In this document: positions 11,846 to 23,577 of the stretch, piece after piece | How the letters are laid out: every line of letters starts with the position of its first letter | Numbering within the stretch: position 1 is the first letter of the stretch | Sequence record: NC_073068.1 | DNA: 44,476 nucleotides | Direction: 5' to 3' (one strand) | From: Escherichia phage vB_EcoD_Pubbukkers | The notes under the pieces: model-generated | Databases searched by the model: none | The model's input: only the letters and a program-made list of their open reading frames with translations | Told to the model about the DNA's origin: nothing | Position numbers and translations under genes: made by a program

Positions 11846-14488
11846 ATGGCAGATCAGGCAGCAGGCATCACGCTAAAGGCTGATGTTGCACAAATCAGAA
11901 CGGCAAATACTGTGCTGGACTCCTTCGCACAGAAATCCGAGAACACAGAAAACAAGGTTAAGAAATTAAACGACACCCTCGGCAAATCCAAAAAGGTGAC
12001 GAGTGACGCCGCGGGCGGAATGGAAAAGCTGGCAAACGAATCGCAGCGCGCCGCCGATGGCATGACGAAACAGGAGCGACTCGCCAACAGGTTAGGCATG
12101 TCGACTAAAAACCTGGGCTTTGCCTCGCGTAACGCCGCATTCCAGTTACAGGATATCGCAGTTACGCTTGAGATGGGGATGCCGGTACACCGCGTTATGC
12201 TTCAGCAGTTACCGCAGCTAACTGGGGCGTTCGGTGGATTGGGTAACACTCTGCGTTATGTTGCTGGCTTCCTCGGTCCAGTTGGGATCGGCCTTGCTGC
12301 GGTAACGGCAACGTTAGGCGTGGGCGTAGCAATTACGTCCCGCGCAGAGAACCAGGTCGCAGCGCTTAACAAGACGCTGGCGCTGTCAGGTAACATTTCC
12401 GGCCTAACGGCAAACCAGATCCTGGTGCTATCCGAGAACGCCGAGCGCATGGGCGGATCATTCCGCAAGACGCGTGACACAATCCAGGCGCTGGCGGCGG
12501 CGGGTGTGAAAGCGGGGGCGGACTTCGGCGCGCTGGCGAAGGTTGTGAATGACTTCGCGAAGGCGTCTAATCAGCCGATCTCTGACGTGGTTGAATCCAT
12601 CTCAAAATTGTCGAACGACCCAGTGGGCGGACTGCGTGCGCTGGCGGATAAGTATCATGTCGTTACCGAGGCGCAGATCCAGCAGGTGCAATCGCTTGTA
12701 GATATGGGGCGTGAAACGGACGCGGTTGCTCTGGCTAACAAAACAGCCGCTGCGTCGTTCTCCAGCATGACCGATGAGGTAAAGTCCAACATGGGTACGC
12801 TTGAGCGGTCGATGAACGTAGTTACATCGGCAGCTAAATCTATGTGGGATGCCATCCTGGATGTGGGCCGCGCGCAGTCCTCGAATGAGTCCGAGATGAA
12901 AGCGCGTGAGTCCTTGCAGCGCATGACCACGGCGTACTATGCCGAGATGAGGGCGGTAAACGCTGCCGGTGGGGTGATGACCGAAGCGCAGAAAGCGCGT
13001 ATTAACATGCTTTACAGCGAACTGGTCGCCCAGGAAAAGGTAGTAGCGTCGCTCACCCTTCGCAACCGTGCCGAGCGAGACAGCGCCAGCGCCGCGGATG
13101 AAGCAGCAAAGGCGAACGAGGAGGCAAACCGCGCCGCCCGCGACCGCGCCGCGTTTGAGAAGGAGTACGCAACCAACGCGAAGCGGCGAGCCGACGAGAT
13201 CGCCCGCCTAAATTTGCTGAATAAGCGCGGTGTTATTAACGAGAAAGAACTAGCCGAGGCGGTGAAGCAGGTCAACGAGCGTTACAAAGACCCCGCGCCG
13301 AAGAAAGCGGCGGCAGTTCGAGTCGATGCCGGGCTGAAAATGCTGGAAGTCGCGCGAAGCGAATTAGCCCAGCTTCGTGAGTCTGGAAAGCAGATCGAAG
13401 CCAACGCATCGACGCAGACCCGCACGCAACGCGCGCAAGCGTCCCTGAACAAGCTGATTGCCGATAATGAGCAGTTAATCACCGCGAGCAAGGAGCGCGC
13501 ACTCACGGCAGCAGAAAAGCAGCAAACGGCGGCGTTCGAGGCGGTTAAATCGGTACGCGAGCAGATCGTCGAAGAAGCCAAATTGCTGGACGCGAAAGAG
13601 AAGCAGATCAAAGCACACGCCCAGGTCGATGCATTCATCAAGAACCAGAACGCCGAGCTAAAAGCCACCGCGGCGGGATATGCGCTTTCCACTCGCGAAG
13701 CGGCTAACCTGCGCGAAGAATTGCAGCTAATTGATCGCCTGAAGCGGGTGGGCGCTAACGATACCGATATTGATCTGGCGGTGTCTAAGCTGCGCGAAGT
13801 GCAGGAAGCACAGACCGGTGCTAACGCCTCGCTATGGGATGGCCTCAGCCGCGGGCTTAAGGATAGCGTTGATGAAATGGGTAACGGCTATACGCAGATG
13901 ACGTCACTCACAAAATTCACGTTCGGCGCTATGCAGGACACGATGAACGAGTTTTTCGAGACTGGCAAGCTGAACGCAAAAGATATGGTTAAGTCCATTC
14001 TGAGCGAATTAATAAAGCTGGCTACCTCGCAGGCATTCAAGTCCATCGTTAGCGCTTTCGGTGGCGACGGCGGCAAAAACGGATTGTTCGGCGCTATCTT
14101 CTCTGGCCTAACTAAGAATGCGGACGGAGGAGCGTACGCAGGGGGCAATCTCGCGGCCTATTCGGGGCAAGTGGTAAGCCAGCCCACCTTTTTCAGTTAC
14201 GGCGTCCAGGCGTTCGCAAAGGGCGCGGGATTGATGGGGGAGGCCGGACCAGAGGCCATCATGCCACTGAAGCGCGGCCCGGACGGCAAACTGGGCGTTG
14301 CCGCTGCCGGTGTAGGCGGAGGGATGATTGTAACGACCAACGTTAACATGGGGACCGGTAAGACGGATACCAGTGTTAGCGGTCCAGACCCGCGCACCGC
14401 GCAGGCGTTCGGAAAGCAAATCACCGAGTCGGTCAAGGCCGAGATCGTGAAGGCGACGAAACCGGGTGGTGTACTTTACAAACGATGA
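11846..14488 (+). CDS. tail tape measure protein
   Basis: 880 aa; long Ala/Gln/Glu-rich predicted helical protein with Gly-rich C-terminal region; lies between the G/GT chaperones and the minor tail genes. Confidence 0.88.
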   Translation: MADQAAGITLKADVAQIRTANTVLDSFAQKSENTENKVKKLNDTLGKSKKVTSDAAGGMEKLANESQRAADGMTKQERLANRLGMSTKNLGFASRNAAFQLQDIAVTLEMGMPVHRVMLQQLPQLTGAFGGLGNTLRYVAGFLGPVGIGLAAVTATLGVGVAITSRAENQVAALNKTLALSGNISGLTANQILVLSENAERMGGSFRKTRDTIQALAAAGVKAGADFGALAKVVNDFAKASNQPISDVVESISKLSNDPVGGLRALADKYHVVTEAQIQQVQSLVDMGRETDAVALANKTAAASFSSMTDEVKSNMGTLERSMNVVTSAAKSMWDAILDVGRAQSSNESEMKARESLQRMTTAYYAEMRAVNAAGGVMTEAQKARINMLYSELVAQEKVVASLTLRNRAERDSASAADEAAKANEEANRAARDRAAFEKEYATNAKRRADEIARLNLLNKRGVINEKELAEAVKQVNERYKDPAPKKAAAVRVDAGLKMLEVARSELAQLRESGKQIEANASTQTRTQRAQASLNKLIADNEQLITASKERALTAAEKQQTAAFEAVKSVREQIVEEAKLLDAKEKQIKAHAQVDAFIKNQNAELKATAAGYALSTREAANLREELQLIDRLKRVGANDTDIDLAVSKLREVQEAQTGANASLWDGLSRGLKDSVDEMGNGYTQMTSLTKFTFGAMQDTMNEFFETGKLNAKDMVKSILSELIKLATSQAFKSIVSAFGGDGGKNGLFGAIFSGLTKNADGGAYAGGNLAAYSGQVVSQPTFFSYGVQAFAKGAGLMGEAGPEAIMPLKRGPDGKLGVAAAGVGGGMIVTTNVNMGTGKTDTSVSGPDPRTAQAFGKQITESVKAEIVKATKPGGVLYKR

Positions 14489-14523
14489 TAAAATGGCCCT
14501 CACTACAACGTGGGGGCTTTTTT

Positions 14524-15123
14524 ATGGCGCAAGGTACAATCACACTAACTAAGGGAAGTAAGACCATCACAGGCGTGGGAACCGCGTTCCTGAGCGAGAT
14601 CGGGAAGGTCCGCGTATTTACCCGCATCGACGGCAACGACTACACCGGAAAAATTGCGGCATTCAACTCTAACACCGTCATCACCCTGGCGGATAACTGG
14701 GCCGGACCGACAAAAGCCGGCGCAGCTTATGAGCTAATCGAAGCGCACGACCCGCGATCAAACGAATGGCCCTATTACTGGCACATGCAATTGCAAGGCG
14801 GCGGAGACGTGCAGTTGGCTTTCCGGTCCGAGGAATTGCAGTTTGGTAACGGTTACGGTCAGAACATCGCGGACGGCCCGAACGCCGAAACGAAACAGTT
14901 CCCCGTGCAATTCATCGGACTGACTACTGACAAGTGGTGCAACCCTAAACTGGTTTACAACTTCCTTCGCGGGCACTTCGTCAAACCGTTTGTCGTCACC
15001 GCGCCGGATGGCGAAACAGGTTTATTCGTGGTCGAGCGTTCGAGCTTGTCGTACACTGACAACGGGCACTACACGGCAACGGTATCCGCCACCCTTAAGA
15101 CTGCTATTGGATTCGTAAGATGA
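14524..15123 (+). CDS. minor tail protein (lambda gpM position)
   Basis: 199 aa from ATG 14524 (MAQGTITLTKGSKTITGVGTAF); first gene after tape measure; N-terminal ~23 aa resemble the N-terminus of the side tail fibre (22006). Confidence 0.6.
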   Translation: MAQGTITLTKGSKTITGVGTAFLSEIGKVRVFTRIDGNDYTGKIAAFNSNTVITLADNWAGPTKAGAAYELIEAHDPRSNEWPYYWHMQLQGGGDVQLAFRSEELQFGNGYGQNIADGPNAETKQFPVQFIGLTTDKWCNPKLVYNFLRGHFVKPFVVTAPDGETGLFVVERSSLSYTDNGHYTATVSATLKTAIGFVR

Positions 15124-15908
15124 ATAAACTATATCGCGAGGCGACGCGCTTTGACCCATCGGGACGCGTTCGCCTGATTCACATTGATGCGCAGGACGTG
15201 GAACCGGGAGACGGCGCCATCGGTGCGGGTCATCACTATTTTCACTATTGCTTTATCCCTCACACTGCCGAGGATATTGCCGCCGCAGGCGGTGACGAGG
15301 ACAAGCTAAAACCTAAATCCATCTTCTTCGGCGGGCAGGAGTTCGAATTTTGGCCCTTCGATTTGTCCGGCCTCAACTTCTCCACATCAACGGCCGCAGA
15401 ACCGCAACTAACAATCGTCGATATTGGCGGCATAATAACCCGGCTGTCGCTGAATCACGACCAGCTACTGGGCGCGAAGGTTGAGATCATTGATACGTTC
15501 GCGAAGTTCCTGGACAACGGGACAGATCCAGACCCGACGCAGAAACGAGTTCAGGAGTATTACATTGACTCGCAGGTCGGGCGCAATCCTGGCAAGCAAA
15601 TCACCTTCGCACTATCCTCGCCTGCGGATATGGAAGGGCAGGTCGTTCCCCGTCGCCAAATCATGAATATGTGCGAGTGGGCGCTCAACGGGAAGTACGC
15701 CAGCGGGGACGGGTGCACCTGGAACCTTGCGAAGCCTGGTATAAAGTATTATGACGAGCGAGGTAATGAAGTCATCGCGATGAACATGGACCGATGCGGC
15801 GGCTGTTTGTCAGACTGTTATCTTCGATTTGGGCAAGGGCTTGCGGACCCTAAAGCGGCGGTGCTGGACTTCGGCGGCTTTCCGGGGTCCAGATTAATTA
15901 AGGGGTAG
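15120..15908 (+). CDS. minor tail protein L-like
   Basis: 262 aa; C-terminal Cys cluster (CGGCLSDC) as expected for the Fe-S-binding lambda gpL family; M-L-K-I-J synteny. Confidence 0.7.
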   Translation: MNKLYREATRFDPSGRVRLIHIDAQDVEPGDGAIGAGHHYFHYCFIPHTAEDIAAAGGDEDKLKPKSIFFGGQEFEFWPFDLSGLNFSTSTAAEPQLTIVDIGGIITRLSLNHDQLLGAKVEIIDTFAKFLDNGTDPDPTQKRVQEYYIDSQVGRNPGKQITFALSSPADMEGQVVPRRQIMNMCEWALNGKYASGDGCTWNLAKPGIKYYDERGNEVIAMNMDRCGGCLSDCYLRFGQGLADPKAAVLDFGGFPGSRLIKG

Positions 15909-15910
15909 TT

Positions 15911-16651
15911 ATGTTAACGAAAAAGGTTAAAAGCGATATAGCCGCACACGTCGCGGCGTGTCTGCCGGAAGAAGCCTGTGGCCTGGTTGTCATGGTGGGT
16001 CGTAAGCAAGTGTTCGTCCCATGTCTGAACGTATTCGAAGACCCGACCGGCGTGCGCTCCCGCAAAGACGCTTTTACGATTAGTGATATGGCCTGGATGG
16101 ATGCCGAGGATATGGGCGACGTCGTGCGCGTAGTCCACTCACACCCGGGTCAGCGCGAGTTAACCCCGTCGTTGGGCGACGTTAACGGATGCAACGGCAG
16201 CGGCGTCGTCTGGACCATCACTAACGAATATGGCGACTTTATCGAGATCGACCCGGAAGACCCGCCGCTGGTGGGTCGCCGATTTGTTCTCGGAATTACG
16301 GATTGTTATGGCCTCGTTATGGACTGGCACAAAAAGCAGGGAGTAAATTTGCCAGACTTCCGCGTGCCGTACAACTGGTGGGAGACCGGGGAGAACCTGT
16401 ACATGGATAACTGGTACGGTGCAGGCTTCAGAGAATGCGAGGAGAATACGCCTGGGGCGATGGTCATCATGCAGATTAGCGCGCCAGTGCCTAACCATGC
16501 CGGAATCTACCTTCCGGGCAACCAACTACTACACCATATCTACGGCAGCCTGTCGAGCGTGATACCCTTCCGGGCAGGATTTTTCCGCGACAATGTGGTT
16601 AAATGGGTACGTCATAAAGACCTACCGGGGAATATCACAGAATGGCAATGA
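15911..16651 (+). CDS. tail assembly protein K-like (JAB/MPN plus NlpC/P60)
   Basis: 246 aa; JAMM-like VVRVVHSHPGQ motif followed by a Cys/His pair (ITDCYGLVMDWH) consistent with an NlpC/P60 domain. Confidence 0.78.
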   Translation: MLTKKVKSDIAAHVAACLPEEACGLVVMVGRKQVFVPCLNVFEDPTGVRSRKDAFTISDMAWMDAEDMGDVVRVVHSHPGQRELTPSLGDVNGCNGSGVVWTITNEYGDFIEIDPEDPPLVGRRFVLGITDCYGLVMDWHKKQGVNLPDFRVPYNWWETGENLYMDNWYGAGFRECEENTPGAMVIMQISAPVPNHAGIYLPGNQLLHHIYGSLSSVIPFRAGFFRDNVVKWVRHKDLPGNITEWQ

Positions 16652-17259
16652 CCACATTTAAATTGTACGGCGTCTTAGGACGTCGTTTTGGTAAAGTGCA
16701 TAAGCTGGACTGCTTCACACCGGGCGAGGGTATCACCGGCCTGTGCGTGAAGTTACCCGGCTTACAGGACTTTCTAATGTCGGCCCACCTGGACAACATG
16801 ATGTTCAAAGTGCGCAAGGGCAATCACACTCTGACCGGCTACGATGAGCTAGGCGAGTTCCACGGCAATCGCGTAGTGACCATCGCGCCGGTTATGACTG
16901 GTGCAAAAAGCGGACTGGGCCAATTGCTGGCGGGTGTAGCAATCGTGGTGGCGTCGTTCTATACCGGCGGGCTTGCGACTGCCGCTTTTGGAGCTTCAGC
17001 GGCGACCGCGGCCTCTATCGGCGCAGCGACGTTTTCGTTCGGGATGTCGATGGCGCTGGGCGGCGTTATGCAATTGCTGTCGCCACAACCGAAAGGATTG
17101 CAGACACGGCAGGACGTGGATAACAAAGCGTCGTATGCGTTCGGCGGCCCGGTAAACACGACCGCGCAAGGTACGGCGCTTGGTGTATTATGGGGCGAGC
17201 GTGAGATCGGCGGCGCTATTATTTCAGCCGGAATCGTAACCGAGGACTTGAACGAATGA
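16642..17259 (+). CDS. tail assembly protein I-like
   Basis: 205 aa between the K-like and J-like genes; Gly/Ala-rich hydrophobic C-terminal half; assigned by synteny. Confidence 0.65.
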   Translation: MAMTTFKLYGVLGRRFGKVHKLDCFTPGEGITGLCVKLPGLQDFLMSAHLDNMMFKVRKGNHTLTGYDELGEFHGNRVVTIAPVMTGAKSGLGQLLAGVAIVVASFYTGGLATAAFGASAATAASIGAATFSFGMSMALGGVMQLLSPQPKGLQTRQDVDNKASYAFGGPVNTTAQGTALGVLWGEREIGGAIISAGIVTEDLNE

Positions 17260-20200
17260 CGATTATCTACGACGTCACAGGGCATAAAGGCGGCGGCGGC
17301 AAACAGCACACCCCACAGGAGACGCCAGATAGCCTGCATTCGCTGGCTAAAATCCGCATCTTGCTTGCGCTGGGGGAAGGGGAATTCGAAAGTATTACCA
17401 GCGCCAGCGAATTGCGGCAGCGTGTTTACCTTGATGGAACGCCGATCCAGAACGCTGACTTGTCCGAAAACTTCCCTGGCGCGCGTGTGGAGTTCCGCCC
17501 CGGCACACAGCACCAGGATGTGATCCACGGATTTTCAGCGGTGGAAAGTGAGCAATCTGTCGGCGTAAAACTGGAAAACGGTACGCCGTGGGTACGCCAG
17601 ATTAACGATACCAGTCTGGACGCCGTTCGCATTCGCATCGGAATTCCGGCCCTGTACACTAACGAAGATAATGGCGACCTGGTTGGCGGACGCATTGACT
17701 ATAAGATCGTTGTGTATACGGATAACGCCGACCCGCGTGAGTTCAGATTCGCCGCCGTTGGTAAAACAATGTCGCTGTATGAGCGCGACCACCGCATCGA
17801 ATTACCGCCGAACGTGAATACCGGCTGGCGCGTGGAGGTGCACCGCATAACGGCAGACTCCACATCGGCGAAAGTGGTTAATGATATCCGGGTGCAGTCC
17901 ATCACTGAGATTATTGACGCCCGCCTGCGTTACCCGCTAACCGCGCTGTTGTTTGTGGAGTTCGACGCCAAAGCGTTCCAGAACATCCCGCGCGTGTCCA
18001 TCAAGTGCAAAGGTCGCAAAGTTCTAATACCGAACAACTACGACCCGATCAATCATACCTATTCCGGGGACTGGGACGGCACGTTTAAACGCGCATGGAC
18101 GGATAACCCTGCGTGGCACTGGTACGATATTTGTATTACTGAGCGCTTCGGCCTCGGTCGGCGTATCAAACCGCAAATGCTAAACCGATACGCGCTCTAC
18201 CAGATTGCGCAGCGCTGCGATCAGTTGGTCAGCGACGGCAACGGTGGTCGAGAAATCCGCTTTAAGAATGATATGTACATTCAGTCACAGACGGATGCCT
18301 GGACCGTGCTTAAGGATTTAGCCGCCATCTTCGCCGGAATGACCTGGTGGGGCAACCAGATGTTGAATATCGTCAGTGACCAACCGGTCGCAGCAGTGTC
18401 GCACACTATCACCAACGCCTCGGTTATTGATGGGCGCTTCGACTACGCGTCCGGTAGCCAGAAAACTCGGTACTCCACGTTCGCAGTAGCATACGGCAAC
18501 CCGAAGAACCACTATGAAGATGCTATCGCAACGGGGCAACGTGTCGAACTGGTACGCCGCCATAAGATTAACCGTCTCGATATTACGGCGATCGGCTGTA
18601 CGCGTGAATCTGAAGCGCAGCGTCGCGGGCACTGGGCGCTAATTTCCAACCAGCTTGACCAGCAAGTTAGCTTTAAAGTTGGCATGGAAGGGTTATTCTT
18701 TATTCCCGGTAGCGTAGTCGCGATCGCGGATACAAACATTTCTGGCGGTTTTGAGACGCGCGGCGGTCGACTGTTGTCGGACCCCGGAACTCGTACCGTG
18801 CTGAACACGGACAGCGAAATCACATTCCGCCCTGGCGATAAGTTCCTGGTACGCACCGATAGCGGTAATGTGGAGACTCGCGAGATCGCCAGCGTCAACG
18901 GCAACAAGGTAACGCTAAAAACCGCACTGGACGCCAACCCTATTCCTGACCAGCCGTTTTGCGTTGATGGCGACGATATCCAGTTGCAGAAATTCCGCAT
19001 CACCGACCTGGAGTATGACGACTCTACGAGCACTTTCTCGGTGCGCGGGATTGAGTACAACGATAGCAAGTATGATGCCGTTGATAATGGCGCGCGCCTT
19101 GATCCGGGTATCTTTACGCAAGTGCCTGACGGGGTAATGAAGGGGCCGGAATCCGTGACCATCACCCCGTCGCAGATTTCATCGCAAGGGCAGCTAATCA
19201 CCAACGTGGATATTGTATTCCCTCCGGTGAAGGATGCCGTGGTGTATGAAATCCAGTGGAGGCGTACCAGCCTTCAGAATATGGAAATCCAGTGGGGTAA
19301 CGACTGGGTGAATATCCCACGCACGGCGTCGAATGGGGCGCACATCCCTAACGTGTTCTCCGGTAACTACCAGGCACGCGTCCGCGCGATCGGTATGGGC
19401 GAGATTTCATCTCCGTGGGTGTCGTCCGCCATCACGCCGGTGGAAGGTCGTCTCGGTGGGCTTAACGCACCAATCATCACCAACGCTATTTCGGGCCTTC
19501 ACCAGATCTTGTGGAAGTGGAACCACAACAACGCCGCTACTGATATCTCGTACACCGAGCTTGAAGTGCGCAAGACCGGTGAGACTGAATGGAAATTCCT
19601 TACCAACGTCCCATATCCGGGGGCGGAGTATGCGCAAACATCGCTGGAGTTCGGAATTTACCAGCAGTTGCGCGCCCGTGTAGCGGATAAAATCGGCAAC
19701 CTGTCGGACTGGTCGGCCCCGTTTGAAGGGCAGGTGAGTGACAAAGTTGACGAGTACATGAAGGGGCTTGATGACGAGTTCTTGACTTCCGAGGATGGTA
19801 AACGCTTCCAGGAAGCAATCAACACGATCCCGCAGGGTATTTACGAGGCGATGCTCACCGACGCGCAGCAATTGTTCAACGCCCGCGCCGAGTACAAGGG
19901 TATTTATGCGGAAATCTCGGTCGCGTATAACGTGGCGGCGGACGCCCACAAGGCGGTCGCTCAACTGGAGACGTTGATCGGCACGCGACTTGATGACGCG
20001 GAAGCTGCGATCCACACGTTGCAGACCGCGCAGAGCACACAGGAACAAGCGTTCGCCCAGTACCAGCAAACTGTTGCCGCTAAGTTCGGGGAACAGGAAG
20101 CCGCCATCCAGCAGGTACAAACGGCAACCGCAGACGTGGCGGGAGCGCTGGCGGAATATAAGACCCAGGTCGCTACACAGTTCGGTCAGCAGTCCGCCGC

Positions 20201-20675
20201 TATCGAGCAGAAGATGACGTCCTCGTTTAACCACTCTGGTGGTAGCGCCACGTATAGCCTTAAGGCTGGCGTGACATATAACGGGACTTATTATGACGCC
20301 GGTATGCAGCTTTCAGTTGTTGCGGAAGGTGGCGCGGTTAAATCCCGCATCGCGTTCAAGGCGGACCAGTTCTACATCATGCACCCATCTAACGGGTCGC
20401 TTTCGTCCGCGTTTATTGTAGACGGCGGCGCGGTGTATATTGACACGGCACGCATCAAAGACGCGACTATCAACTTCGCGCAGATTACGGACACGTTGCA
20501 ATCGAATAACTACGACGGCTACTCGCGTGGTTGGCGTTTAGGGAAAGACGGAACGTTTATCAACCTGGGAACCGGTAACGGTGGCGGGATGAAACAGACA
20601 AACACGCAAATCAGCGTCAGGGACGGAAACGGCGTGCTCCGCGTGCAGATTGGTGAGATCACAGGTTATTGGTAA
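17256..20675 (+). CDS. central tail fibre / host specificity protein (lambda gpJ-like)
   Basis: 1139 aa, matching gpJ size and position after M/L/K/I-like genes; C-terminal region likely receptor-binding. Confidence 0.85.
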   Translation: MTIIYDVTGHKGGGGKQHTPQETPDSLHSLAKIRILLALGEGEFESITSASELRQRVYLDGTPIQNADLSENFPGARVEFRPGTQHQDVIHGFSAVESEQSVGVKLENGTPWVRQINDTSLDAVRIRIGIPALYTNEDNGDLVGGRIDYKIVVYTDNADPREFRFAAVGKTMSLYERDHRIELPPNVNTGWRVEVHRITADSTSAKVVNDIRVQSITEIIDARLRYPLTALLFVEFDAKAFQNIPRVSIKCKGRKVLIPNNYDPINHTYSGDWDGTFKRAWTDNPAWHWYDICITERFGLGRRIKPQMLNRYALYQIAQRCDQLVSDGNGGREIRFKNDMYIQSQTDAWTVLKDLAAIFAGMTWWGNQMLNIVSDQPVAAVSHTITNASVIDGRFDYASGSQKTRYSTFAVAYGNPKNHYEDAIATGQRVELVRRHKINRLDITAIGCTRESEAQRRGHWALISNQLDQQVSFKVGMEGLFFIPGSVVAIADTNISGGFETRGGRLLSDPGTRTVLNTDSEITFRPGDKFLVRTDSGNVETREIASVNGNKVTLKTALDANPIPDQPFCVDGDDIQLQKFRITDLEYDDSTSTFSVRGIEYNDSKYDAVDNGARLDPGIFTQVPDGVMKGPESVTITPSQISSQGQLITNVDIVFPPVKDAVVYEIQWRRTSLQNMEIQWGNDWVNIPRTASNGAHIPNVFSGNYQARVRAIGMGEISSPWVSSAITPVEGRLGGLNAPIITNAISGLHQILWKWNHNNAATDISYTELEVRKTGETEWKFLTNVPYPGAEYAQTSLEFGIYQQLRARVADKIGNLSDWSAPFEGQVSDKVDEYMKGLDDEFLTSEDGKRFQEAINTIPQGIYEAMLTDAQQLFNARAEYKGIYAEISVAYNVAADAHKAVAQLETLIGTRLDDAEAAIHTLQTAQSTQEQAFAQYQQTVAAKFGEQEAAIQQVQTATADVAGALAEYKTQVATQFGQQSAAIEQKMTSSFNHSGGSATYSLKAGVTYNGTYYDAGMQLSVVAEGGAVKSRIAFKADQFYIMHPSNGSLSSAFIVDGGAVYIDTARIKDATINFAQITDTLQSNNYDGYSRGWRLGKDGTFINLGTGNGGGMKQTNTQISVRDGNGVLRVQIGEITGYW

Positions 20676-20712
20676 CACAGGGGCTTTGGCCCCTTTCTTA
20701 GGGAGGTATAGC

Positions 20713-21015
20713 ATGGCTTTCGGTGTAGCAACATGGGACGCGCAAGGGCGTCCAAACAACTACGGGATCAAGCCCGTTTCGGTTGTCGGAATTATTAAAC
20801 TGGCACAAGGTCAAACATCAGGGGCGTGGTCATTCGATATTCCGTCAGGGATGAAAGTAGGTTTTGCGGTTACGCTGGACGTAGGTGGCACTACGGTCGG
20901 TCGGGCGATCCGCGCCAGCGGGAACACGATAACAGTATATGCGGCGAACAGCGTCGGTATTGGAAACTACCCCGCATCAGAATGTGAAGTAGTAGTTTTT
21001 GTGGAGAAAGCGTAA
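20713..21015 (+). CDS. hypothetical tail-associated protein
   Basis: 100 aa from ATG 20713 (MAFGVATWDAQG) with RBS GGGAGG; directly downstream of the J-like gene. Confidence 0.5.
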   Translation: MAFGVATWDAQGRPNNYGIKPVSVVGIIKLAQGQTSGAWSFDIPSGMKVGFAVTLDVGGTTVGRAIRASGNTITVYAANSVGIGNYPASECEVVVFVEKA

Positions 21016-21017
21016 AA

Positions 21018-21689
21018 ATGGCAAACTTCGGCGCGTTAATCGATAACAACAACGGCAACCCATTCGTCACGCCAAACTCAACGCCATTCGTGCTCTATGC
21101 TAAGGTGTCCGCAAATTCAGTTGACGCAGGTGCGGGTTATAAGACCGCGAGTGGCGCAGTGGATATCCCCGCGAACTATCCGGCGATGGTGTTCATGCGG
21201 TCTAATAACCGTTGTGTACTCGCAGCGTCCCGGTCAGGAAACAGGATTTTATTTAGCGGAAGCATTCAGGGGCGGAATAACCCACATTTTACCGTCACGG
21301 CGTATGTATTCGCGCGATTCCCACAGCCGCTGCCGAAATGGGGATTTGCTATTTGGGACGCCAGCGGGACTTGCATACTAACCAACGAGAGCAAGGTGCT
21401 CACCGATCTAGTCACTGTTGGCAGCTTCGGTAATAACGGCGGGATCAACATAGACCAGACGTTGCCGGGTAAGTACGCGGTGTCGCCAATGTTAATGGGG
21501 GCTACTCTAATCCGAATATTCGTGCAAGGACAGCCGCAAATAATCCAGATTTCGGCGGGCGCAGGCGCTTATGACAACGGAAGCGGCACTCGTATTAACG
21601 CAGTCGCAACGCAGGCGGGGTCTGGTAGCATCGCAGGATATCAAAACACCGGCGTTGCTCTGACTGCAATTAACGTTGATGGGATATGA
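21018..21689 (+). CDS. hypothetical tail-associated protein
   Basis: 223 aa; Gly/Asn/Ser-rich; shares a W-D-A-x-G segment with the preceding small protein (possible paralogue). Confidence 0.5.
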   Translation: MANFGALIDNNNGNPFVTPNSTPFVLYAKVSANSVDAGAGYKTASGAVDIPANYPAMVFMRSNNRCVLAASRSGNRILFSGSIQGRNNPHFTVTAYVFARFPQPLPKWGFAIWDASGTCILTNESKVLTDLVTVGSFGNNGGINIDQTLPGKYAVSPMLMGATLIRIFVQGQPQIIQISAGAGAYDNGSGTRINAVATQAGSGSIAGYQNTGVALTAINVDGI

Positions 21690-22005: not shown

Positions 22006-23577
22006 ATGGCAGCGGGTACGCTATCCGTAACGAACAATAGCAAGGCGGTAGTAGGGGTCGGCACAACGTTTACCTCGTTTAACGCTGGCGACTTCTTAAC
22101 GCTGGTGGTAGGACAAGTCCCCTACACCGTAGCAATCGCGTCCATTGAAAGCGAAACCGCGCTTACGCTGGTGCTGCCGTTCGACGGCCCAACGGCAACC
22201 GGCCTCGCGTGGGATGGCGTTAAGCGCGATACCATGTCACTGGCTACGATGGGTGTTACCGTCCAGGCACAGAAAGCACTACGCTTGATGATTGCAGATG
22301 AAAACAACTGGCGTGCAATCTTCGGCGACGCTGAAGAAATCACAGTGACGTTACCTAACGGGCAGGTTATGCAGGGCATGTCATGGGGCTATCTGTCACA
22401 GCTAATGAAGCAGATCGACCCTGTTGAGATGCGCAACCTGCAACAGCAAGCCGCCGCATCGGAAGCAGCCGCGCAGGGATTTCGCGATCAGGCCGAAGAA
22501 TGGGCGAAAAGCGTAAACCCCGACAACCTACTAACCAAATCCGGCAACCTAGCGGGGCTTGCGGACAAAGGCGCGTCGTGGGCTAACCTTATGCCGCCCG
22601 GACCGCTTCGCATAGGTGCGGACCCCGTAAACCACCTGGACGCTGCGACTAAAGGGTGGGTGTGGCGCGGTCTTGATGACGTGGGGCTTTGGGGCTTACG
22701 CAATAACTACGCTTCAGAACCCGCAGGGGGTGCAGAAGTATACGGCGGGCGCTTTGACTCCTCTATGAACGTCGCAGGGGCCGAAAAATATAGAATGTCG
22801 ATACAGCTTCAGGGCTTAAATAACGTAGACGCCTGGACCCGCTTGGCGACCGTTGACGCCAGCAGCATGGCTACCGAGGCGTCGTGGGACTTTAAATATG
22901 ATGGCAAGATTATTTTCAACAAAGGATTGTCGCCATCGTCCACCTCGGCGTCGCCAGGTAATACCTACGTAACCCTTGCGAATACATGGATGGGCGACCA
23001 ATATTCGGGACACGTCGGCTTTGTTGGAGGCGGGGCGGGGACGAGTGGTGGCGGGTGGCGTAACTTTATTTCGTTCGGCGCGCTGATCCACCCGCCCACC
23101 GGTAACTCGCACCCCCATGCTATGATTGCGCAGGTCTTTGATTATGATTTGGCGTCCGGTACACAGCCTAACGGCGATATCGTTCGAAACACTACATTCA
23201 ACCCCGAAGCATACGATATCACCTTCGGCAACAACTCAGGGACTGTTAACTATATTTTCGCAAAGTCCCCGGTATCCGATAGGGCGCTGAAGCATGATAT
23301 CGCCCGGATCGATACTCAAGTTGCGTACGATAACGTTATGACTATGGAGTACTCGTCCTTTGTTTATAACTACGACAAAAAAGAGACGGTTAGACGTGGT
23401 TTTATCGCGCAGCAGTTGGAAGAGATCGACCCGCAGTATGTCCGCAAGTACACCAACGCAACCGGTAAAGAGTTTCTGGCATTAGACGAAAACGTCCTAC
23501 TACTTGACCTTGTCGCGACTGTTCAGCATTTGGCGGCGAAGGTTGAGGCGTTAGAAAGTAAGTTAGCGGAGAAATAA
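22006..23577 (+). CDS. side tail fibre with C-terminal intramolecular chaperone (peptidase S74-like)
   Basis: 523 aa; C-terminal SDRALKHDIARIDTQVAYDNVMTMEYSSFVYNYD...RRGFIAQQLEEIDPQYV resembles the auto-cleaving chaperone domain of endosialidase/T5-type fibres. Confidence 0.75.
   Translation: MAAGTLSVTNNSKAVVGVGTTFTSFNAGDFLTLVVGQVPYTVAIASIESETALTLVLPFDGPTATGLAWDGVKRDTMSLATMGVTVQAQKALRLMIADENNWRAIFGDAEEITVTLPNGQVMQGMSWGYLSQLMKQIDPVEMRNLQQQAAASEAAAQGFRDQAEEWAKSVNPDNLLTKSGNLAGLADKGASWANLMPPGPLRIGADPVNHLDAATKGWVWRGLDDVGLWGLRNNYASEPAGGAEVYGGRFDSSMNVAGAEKYRMSIQLQGLNNVDAWTRLATVDASSMATEASWDFKYDGKIIFNKGLSPSSTSASPGNTYVTLANTWMGDQYSGHVGFVGGGAGTSGGGWRNFISFGALIHPPTGNSHPHAMIAQVFDYDLASGTQPNGDIVRNTTFNPEAYDITFGNNSGTVNYIFAKSPVSDRALKHDIARIDTQVAYDNVMTMEYSSFVYNYDKKETVRRGFIAQQLEEIDPQYVRKYTNATGKEFLALDENVLLLDLVATVQHLAAKVEALESKLAEK

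Follow-up and report, generated by a model that had tools for sequence, protein, structure and literature searches.

A fibre-anchor barrel domain shared by the distal tail protein and the lateral tail fibre of a Dhillonvirus

The distal tail protein (DTP) and the lateral tail fibre of the Dhillonvirus analysed here begin with homologous copies of a domain that, according to structure prediction, is a complete six-stranded OB-like β-barrel of ~75 residues. A profile scan of all six frames of the window, that is, the whole stretch of DNA that was analysed (44,476 nucleotides of Escherichia phage vB_EcoD_Pubbukkers, NC_073068.1), finds exactly two copies of this barrel. Our favored explanation, which we consider probable, is that the copy in the DTP is a captured fibre-anchor barrel that serves as a peripheral decoration of the tail tip and that the copy in the fibre docks on the coiled-coil shaft of the J-like central fibre; we infer both the docking and the decorative role.

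The window represents a siphophage of E. coli; between 11.8 and 23.6 kb its DNA is ~91% identical to that of E. coli Dhillonviruses such as McMelon, CEC_Kaz_2018, and PaulFeyerabend. The plus strand of this region encodes a lambda-like tail module: the tape measure protein (TMP; 11846..14488), the DTP (14524..15123; 199 residues), homologues of gpL (15120..15908), gpK (15911..16651), and gpI (16642..17259), the J-like central fibre or tail tip protein (17256..20675; 1139 residues; PDB 23gd_D, E=0), a pair of small genes (20650..21015 and 21018..21689) assigned to phrog_557 (‘outer membrane protein’) or phrog_425 (‘membrane associated protein’), and the lateral tail fibre (22006..23577; 523 residues), which carries a C-terminal Peptidase_S74 chaperone domain. 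The initial annotation called the products of the genes at 14524 and 22006 a minor tail protein and a side tail fibre, and both names fit. The minor tail protein is the DTP, that is, the homologue of gpM, because its residues 86–187 match Pfam family PF05939 (Phage_min_tail; 44.3 bits vs a cut-off of 39), it is 98% identical to chain B of PDB 23gd (‘Distal tail protein gp20’; E=1e−134), and chains C and D of the same structure are matched by the window's L and J homologues. Its gene also occupies the slot expected for gpM, between those for the TMP and the gpL homologue and followed by K, I, and J. In a PDB sequence search, the window fibre matched no fibre chain of 23gd. Aeromonas phage Avs-1 also has a ‘distal tail protein gp20’ (PMC13612043), which was considered as the same protein and rejected because this phage is unrelated.

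Several side observations concern this module. Campylobacter phage A144 (93% identical), an Acinetobacter phage, and Sodalis phages also match the Dhillonvirus tail region; their host labels may be unreliable. The slot between J and the fibre, which holds the two small genes at 20650–21689 in the window, contains two opposite-strand genes, for a DUF6453 protein and a phage lipoprotein, in two relatives (L001 and L004). In the F7 pyocin, two small proteins sit on the tip of the central fibre, and an unannotated receptor-binding protein has been proposed at the tip of the Dhillonvirus spike (PMC12309495).

We place the start of the DTP at 14524: the 199-residue PDB chain and two homologues (P0003 and P0004) begin at MxQGT, and GGGGG at 14511–14515 precedes this start. 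The mechanical open reading frame begins instead at an ATG at 14485 (212 residues, overlapping the stop of the TMP); this start was rejected because the frame upstream of 14524 differs among phages and is unconserved. Two database entries (P0001 and P0002) have upstream DTP starts, of the 14485 type or other.

By translation, the DTP begins with MAQGTITLTKGSKTITGVGTAF and the fibre with MAAGTLSVTNNSKAVVGVGTTF; 12 of the 22 residues are identical. The initial annotation had described a likeness of ~23 residues at about half of the positions with conserved spacing; both the identity and the spacing are as described, but the extent was understated, because the likeness covers a whole domain of ~70–75 residues. 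BLASTP aligns residues 1–70 of both proteins (28/71 identical, 54% positives, E=8e−9), and the Smith–Waterman score of 109 compares with 27 ± 5.1 for 5000 shuffles (z=16), none of which reaches 109; residues 1–23 and residues 24–75, each tested alone, also outscore all 5000 shuffles. [quoted passage not shown] The N-terminal segments of the DTP and the fibre are homologous domains, that is, the shared module that had been suspected.

AF2 models of both proteins contain the same six-stranded β-barrel at residues ~4–73, with the same strand order and pLDDT values of 80–93. In the DTP, the barrel (residues 1–75; 14524..14748, + strand) is an extra N-terminal domain located by BLASTP, by PHROG and F2-pyocin 25ve_A profile matches, and by AF2, which places strands at residues 4–8, 14–18, 28–35, 38–47, 52–55, and 64–73 (pLDDT 85–91); a Pfam scan found no family over it. 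A linker (residues 76–85, the HDPRSNEWPY region; 14749..14778, + strand; low pLDDT at residues 75–80) joins the barrel to the core (residues 86–199 and the stop codon; 14779..15123, + strand), a tail-tube-fold domain homologous to lambda gpM and the T1 DTP. The model thus consists of barrel, ~10-residue linker, and tube-fold domain, with no stem helix. The linker is 98.8% conserved in 16 Dhillonviruses. The folded 75-residue barrel is absent from the closest plain DTPs (P0005–P0010), and the plain DTPs of relatives start at the linker, exactly where it ends.

In the fibre, the anchor barrel (residues 1–75; 22006..22230, + strand; located by BLASTP and PHROG, with a DTP-like strand pattern in the AF2 model) is followed by a predicted stem helix (residues 74–105) and a β-hairpin module (residues 106–135, with strands at 112–115 and 121–124), which together span 22225..22410 (+ strand). 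The remainder (22411..23577, + strand) is the variable shaft and receptor-binding part, which matches the T5-type L-shaped fibre 8hqz_d and ends in an intramolecular chaperone (Peptidase_S74, residues 424–479; PF13884, E=3e−11). Within the stem helix, K90 and R93 are invariant in three fibres of this phage group; among 22 diverse fibres, R93 is nearly invariant and N101 and W102 are invariant. Dhillonvirus lateral fibres (the window and L007–L021) range from 523 to 893 residues, with a mean identity of 94% over the anchor barrel and about 94% identity over the first ~135 residues, and with length and sequence that vary beyond the anchor; this pattern of a shared beginning and a variable remainder places a fibre-swap recombination boundary near residues 135–150.

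The domain belongs to a large family. Homologues were gathered using full-length DTP and fibre alignment queries, the latter giving mostly partial proteins; a word-index search with the 85-residue N-terminal domain alone returned nothing, owing to limits of the search method. Among 1.84 billion representative proteins, a two-sequence profile identified 3389 clusters at E≤1e−3 and 454 at E≤1e−10. In the best 150 of the 3389 clusters, the domain almost always occupies residues 1–75 of proteins with 250–900 residues, and the only DTP fusion identified is the Dhillonvirus DTP; PF05939 was found in none of the ~200-residue matches from the representative search that were scanned for further DTP fusions. 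Named members are annotated as ‘tail fiber domain-containing protein’ or ‘phage tail protein’ and are found in prophages of Citrobacter, Enterobacter, Salmonella, Erwinia, Pantoea, and Kluyvera. The family also includes giant proteins (~640–2900 residues; P0042–P0045, P0062, P0067, and P0069) with 4–13 tandem barrels of ~70 residues, so the barrel also serves as a repeated bead in very large proteins; PKD domains are present in both of the tandem-barrel proteins that were scanned (P0042 and P0069), and P0043 is named ‘PKD repeat protein’.

Among the closest known systems are the side fibres of F-type pyocins (PyoF13/PA0643/PA0646; PDB 25ve and 25vj), which belong to the same sequence family as the barrel over residues 5–74. 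A profile of 17 N-terminal domains of the DTP and fibre types matches residues 5–74 of the F2-pyocin side fibre (PDB 25ve_A) with E=4e−10; the DTP alone gives E=0.0033, and the window fibre alone does not match within E≤1. The neighbours returned by fold searches are all weak. The model of the fibre domain weakly matches a domain of the 557-residue DTP of phage Chi (8vjh_B; 75 columns, 23% identity), an OB-like domain of lambda J, and an endosialidase β-barrel, and the N-terminal barrels of F1/V-ATPases are also weak fold neighbours. Searches with the DTP model gave weak tailspike matches, for which the listings do not state the aligned parts; the Foldseek match to phi92 gp150 covers 85 columns, a length that fits the barrel.

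In pyocins, this domain is the side-fibre attachment domain and binds the coiled coil of the central fibre; the trimeric central-fibre shaft has a kinked, acidic stretch to which three trimers of the side fibre dock (PMC13455828; PMC12874032; bioRxiv 10.64898/2026.02.24.707460). The window and the pyocins agree in the layout of the trimeric side fibre, which opens with this domain at residue 1 and continues as a helical stem, and their J-like central fibres are homologous and have a coiled-coil shaft. The fibre copy in the window has both traits of this anchor type, the N-terminal position and the AF2-predicted stem helix; the DTP copy lacks the stem. The window J matches the F2-pyocin central fibre (25vf_A) with E=2.4e−223 over 850 residues, and the part of J after the shaft also matches it (E=1.7e−19). 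The coiled-coil shaft of J (residues ~830–985; 19743–20210, + strand) is the putative docking site of the side-fibre anchor. An acidic motif, GLDDEFLTSEDG, and a helical region are present in the J proteins of all relatives with this fibre type; at the start of the shaft, the acidic motif GLDDEFLTSEDGK is conserved together with a nearby glycine (EEYLQSEDGK in L023), and it is kept even in the J of a Pantoea prophage that is only 38% identical. This conservation is compatible with a counterpart of the acidic docking patch of pyocins, although the pyocin segment at ~845–975, which includes the attachment site at 953–956, has no aligned counterpart in the window J. The shaft also varies in length: compared with the window, it is ~80 residues shorter in the J of L004 (12513–15770) and 14 residues longer in that of L005 (12965–16852). 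Shaft docking is known for the pyocins; for the Dhillonvirus fibre, homology makes docking of the anchor on the J shaft the most plausible arrangement.

The pyocins differ from the Dhillonviruses in that only their fibres carry the domain and their DTP is plain (25vf_6; 113 residues), whereas the Dhillonviruses have a second, stemless copy on the DTP. Two copies, one in the DTP and one in the fibre, were found by profile scan in all 15 further Dhillonvirus loci (16/16 with the window). All eight relatives whose sequence reaches the fibre gene have a single copy, in the fibre, and plain DTPs of 113–125 residues. The closest relatives of the DTP itself form two groups, one of 199-residue proteins with 84–98% identity, all from Dhillonviruses, and one of plain 122–125-residue proteins with 56–66% identity. 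In three sister phages (L001–L003), the DTP has 123 residues and no barrel, the fibre is nearly identical to that of the window over its first 150 residues, TMP length, K, and I are the same, and J is 96–100% identical along most of the protein; for the DTP core, identity drops to 64%, and the genes for the DTP and L seem to have been swapped as a unit. The more distant L004 and L005 combine plain DTPs with fibres whose anchors are 58–59% identical, and prophages of Erwinia, Pantoea, and Citrobacter (L022–L024) combine DTPs of 113–116 residues with anchor-bearing fibres and with J proteins that have a helical segment before the Phage_Tail_Tip domain. Since close relatives with plain DTPs retain this J and this fibre anchor, the DTP copy is dispensable for fibre attachment, and the anchor must dock on a feature shared by all of these tails.

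The gpL homologue varies at the same level of the tip. It has 415 residues in L001 (10362–11609), vs 262 in the window, and is also enlarged in L002, L003, L005, and L006; in these plain-DTP sister phages, the insert consists of ~150 residues after residue ~55, and its residues 70–194 weakly match residues 497–617 of the ‘Megatron protein’ of roseophage R4C (8gtc_M; E=1.6e−4). L001 and L005 have a plain DTP and the gpL insertion, and L004 has neither. This distribution suggests that the DTP barrel and the gpL insertion may be interchangeable, optional decorations.

The DTP copy is old. It is 35–39% identical to the resident fibre copy in amino acids, 50% in nucleotides, and 30% at third codon positions, and it is closer to the fibres of other enterobacterial prophages (40–49%) than to the resident fibre; this affinity, together with the high divergence, indicates that the domain was captured long ago from a fibre gene and is not a recent copy of its neighbour. 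Recent gene conversion is rejected by the low identity at third positions and by the longest exact nucleotide match between the two copies, which is 8 bases. The initial annotation had offered module exchange between fibre genes as one explanation; an ancient sharing of the module is upheld, but one partner, the DTP, is no fibre protein, and the event is old. The DTP barrel is clearly under constraint: its dN/dS is 0.10, three times that of the DTP core (0.034), and it is kept by purifying selection.

Taken together, these results would be explained as follows. The fibre barrel, the long stem helix, and the small hairpin would form a conserved virion-attachment module of ~135 residues that, by homology with the F-pyocins, docks three fibre trimers on the trimeric coiled-coil shaft of J. 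Long ago, the DTP would have gained the barrel from a fibre gene, without the stem helix and ahead of the tube-fold domain, so that a hexameric DTP ring would show six extra barrels at the tube–tip junction. There, the barrels would decorate the ring much as the OB-fold domain does in T5 pb9 or the additional domains do in ‘evolved’ DTPs, with an accessory role that may be weak binding of cell-surface glycans or stabilizing contacts within the tail tip. Binding of surface carbohydrates, which the endosialidase β-barrel among the fold neighbours brings to mind, is a lead only. The DTP barrel would be confined to the tube–tip junction by the fixed tube-fold domain and the linker of only ~10 residues; judging from the published lambda and pyocin architectures, the distal J shaft would be out of its reach. 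In all of the Dhillonviruses, the DTP barrel is found together with this fibre type, a pattern that would also fit a fibre-related role.

Other explanations can be weighed against this one. The abundance of G, T, S, and V in the first 23 residues might suggest that the similarity is due to chance or low complexity, or to a recent conversion without functional meaning; we give this essentially no credence, given the alignment statistics (E=8e−9; z=16), the significance of residues 24–75 alone, profiles that gather thousands of clusters, and the same six-strand barrel in both AF2 models, with 30% third-position identity arguing against recent conversion and a dN/dS of 0.10, that is, constraint, against a lack of meaning. 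The initial annotation also suggested a common docking site on the tail tip or baseplate. The domains are indeed homologous, and the basic residues K28 and R30 of the DTP lie in the loop that corresponds to the shaft contact, where Arg30 is found in the F7 side fibre (PMC12874032); however, the DTP sits in the tube–tip junction by means of its own tube-fold domain (PF05939, residues 86–187) and has no need of a docking module, the J shaft beyond the hub would be unreachable from there, its barrel lacks the stem helix, and close relatives whose DTPs are plain have tips made from these same genes, including an equivalent J and fibre anchor. That the two barrels share or compete for one site is therefore very improbable.

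A different arrangement, in which the barrels of the DTP dock those of the fibre, like with like, so that the fibres hang from the DTP ring, like those of Ur-lambda or T5, in a mixed collar at the tube–tip junction, is better founded but still unlikely. The pyocin barrels form a pseudo-sixfold ring by lateral contacts, with two barrels from each fibre trimer (PMC13455828); the collar of Ur-lambda consists of twelve fibre N-domains located exactly at the gpV/gpM junction (PMC12617516); in monocin (cited in PMC13455828) and Avs-1 (PMC13612043), DTP extensions serve as docking sites for receptor-binding proteins; and both copies are present in 16/16 Dhillonviruses. Against it, the sister phages have a nearly identical J and fibre anchor and no DTP barrel, which counts against a requirement for the DTP barrel but not against an additional site; in pyocins, whose DTPs are plain, the homologous fibres are attached to the shaft of the central fibre; and the stem helix, which takes part in docking in pyocins, is missing from the DTP copy. 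Nor did we detect covariation in the divergence of the DTP and fibre barrels (Spearman rho 0.06, p=0.48), which is weak evidence because the barrels vary little. In its most explicit version, which is slightly more doubtful again, the six DTP barrels would be half of the collar and two barrels from each of three fibre trimers the other half, giving a mixed twelve-membered ring at the tube–tip junction. If so, the Dhillonviruses would have moved the place of fibre attachment from the shaft of the central fibre to the DTP, or duplicated it there, and in sister phages that lack the fusion these fibres would be attached at another place.

The favored explanation, a captured anchor that decorates the DTP ring, has parallels in other tails. 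T5 pb9 (a tube-fold domain and the OB-fold domain B), the ‘evolved’ Dits of phages of Gram-positive bacteria, and the Chi DTP (8vjh_B) likewise consist of a DTP core with an exposed small β-barrel, and the OB domain of pyocins is similar to the decoration of T5 pb9 (PMC13455828). The DTPs of lambda (gpM; 8iyk_M) and T1 (9l9p_H), in contrast, have 109–117 residues without an N-terminal domain. In the Stf collar of Ur-lambda and the collars of T5 p132 and DT57C LtfC, a small all-β N-domain and a helix anchor the side fibres, as proposed for the fibre module here, and many copies of the Stf N-domain assemble as a ring on the Ur-lambda tail tip (PMC12617516). The ring lies around the DTP in these collars but around the shaft of the central fibre in the case of the homologous pyocin domain; the lambda Stf and T5 collar chains were not returned by the barrel profile in a search of all PDB sequences at E≤10.

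This fibre-anchor family (from the 2026 pyocin structures), decorated DTPs, and the deposited 23gd structure of this DTP are already known. We found no description in which the Dhillonvirus DTP decoration is recognized as paralogous to the anchor of the virion's own side fibres, nor one of relatives that lack the DTP barrel and keep the same fibre. The DTP fusion is a modest, lineage-specific variation on decorated tail proteins, and the general picture of siphophage tail tips is unchanged. What the analysis provides is a definition of the ~135-residue attachment module of the Dhillonvirus fibre and its connection to the anchor of the F-pyocins. For fibre swapping and the engineering of host range, the C-terminal parts downstream of residue ~135 would be exchangeable. 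The DTP offers a clean natural case in which a core tail protein has captured a fibre-anchor domain, and the natural variants with and without the barrel, which share J and the fibre, make the role of the DTP decoration directly testable.
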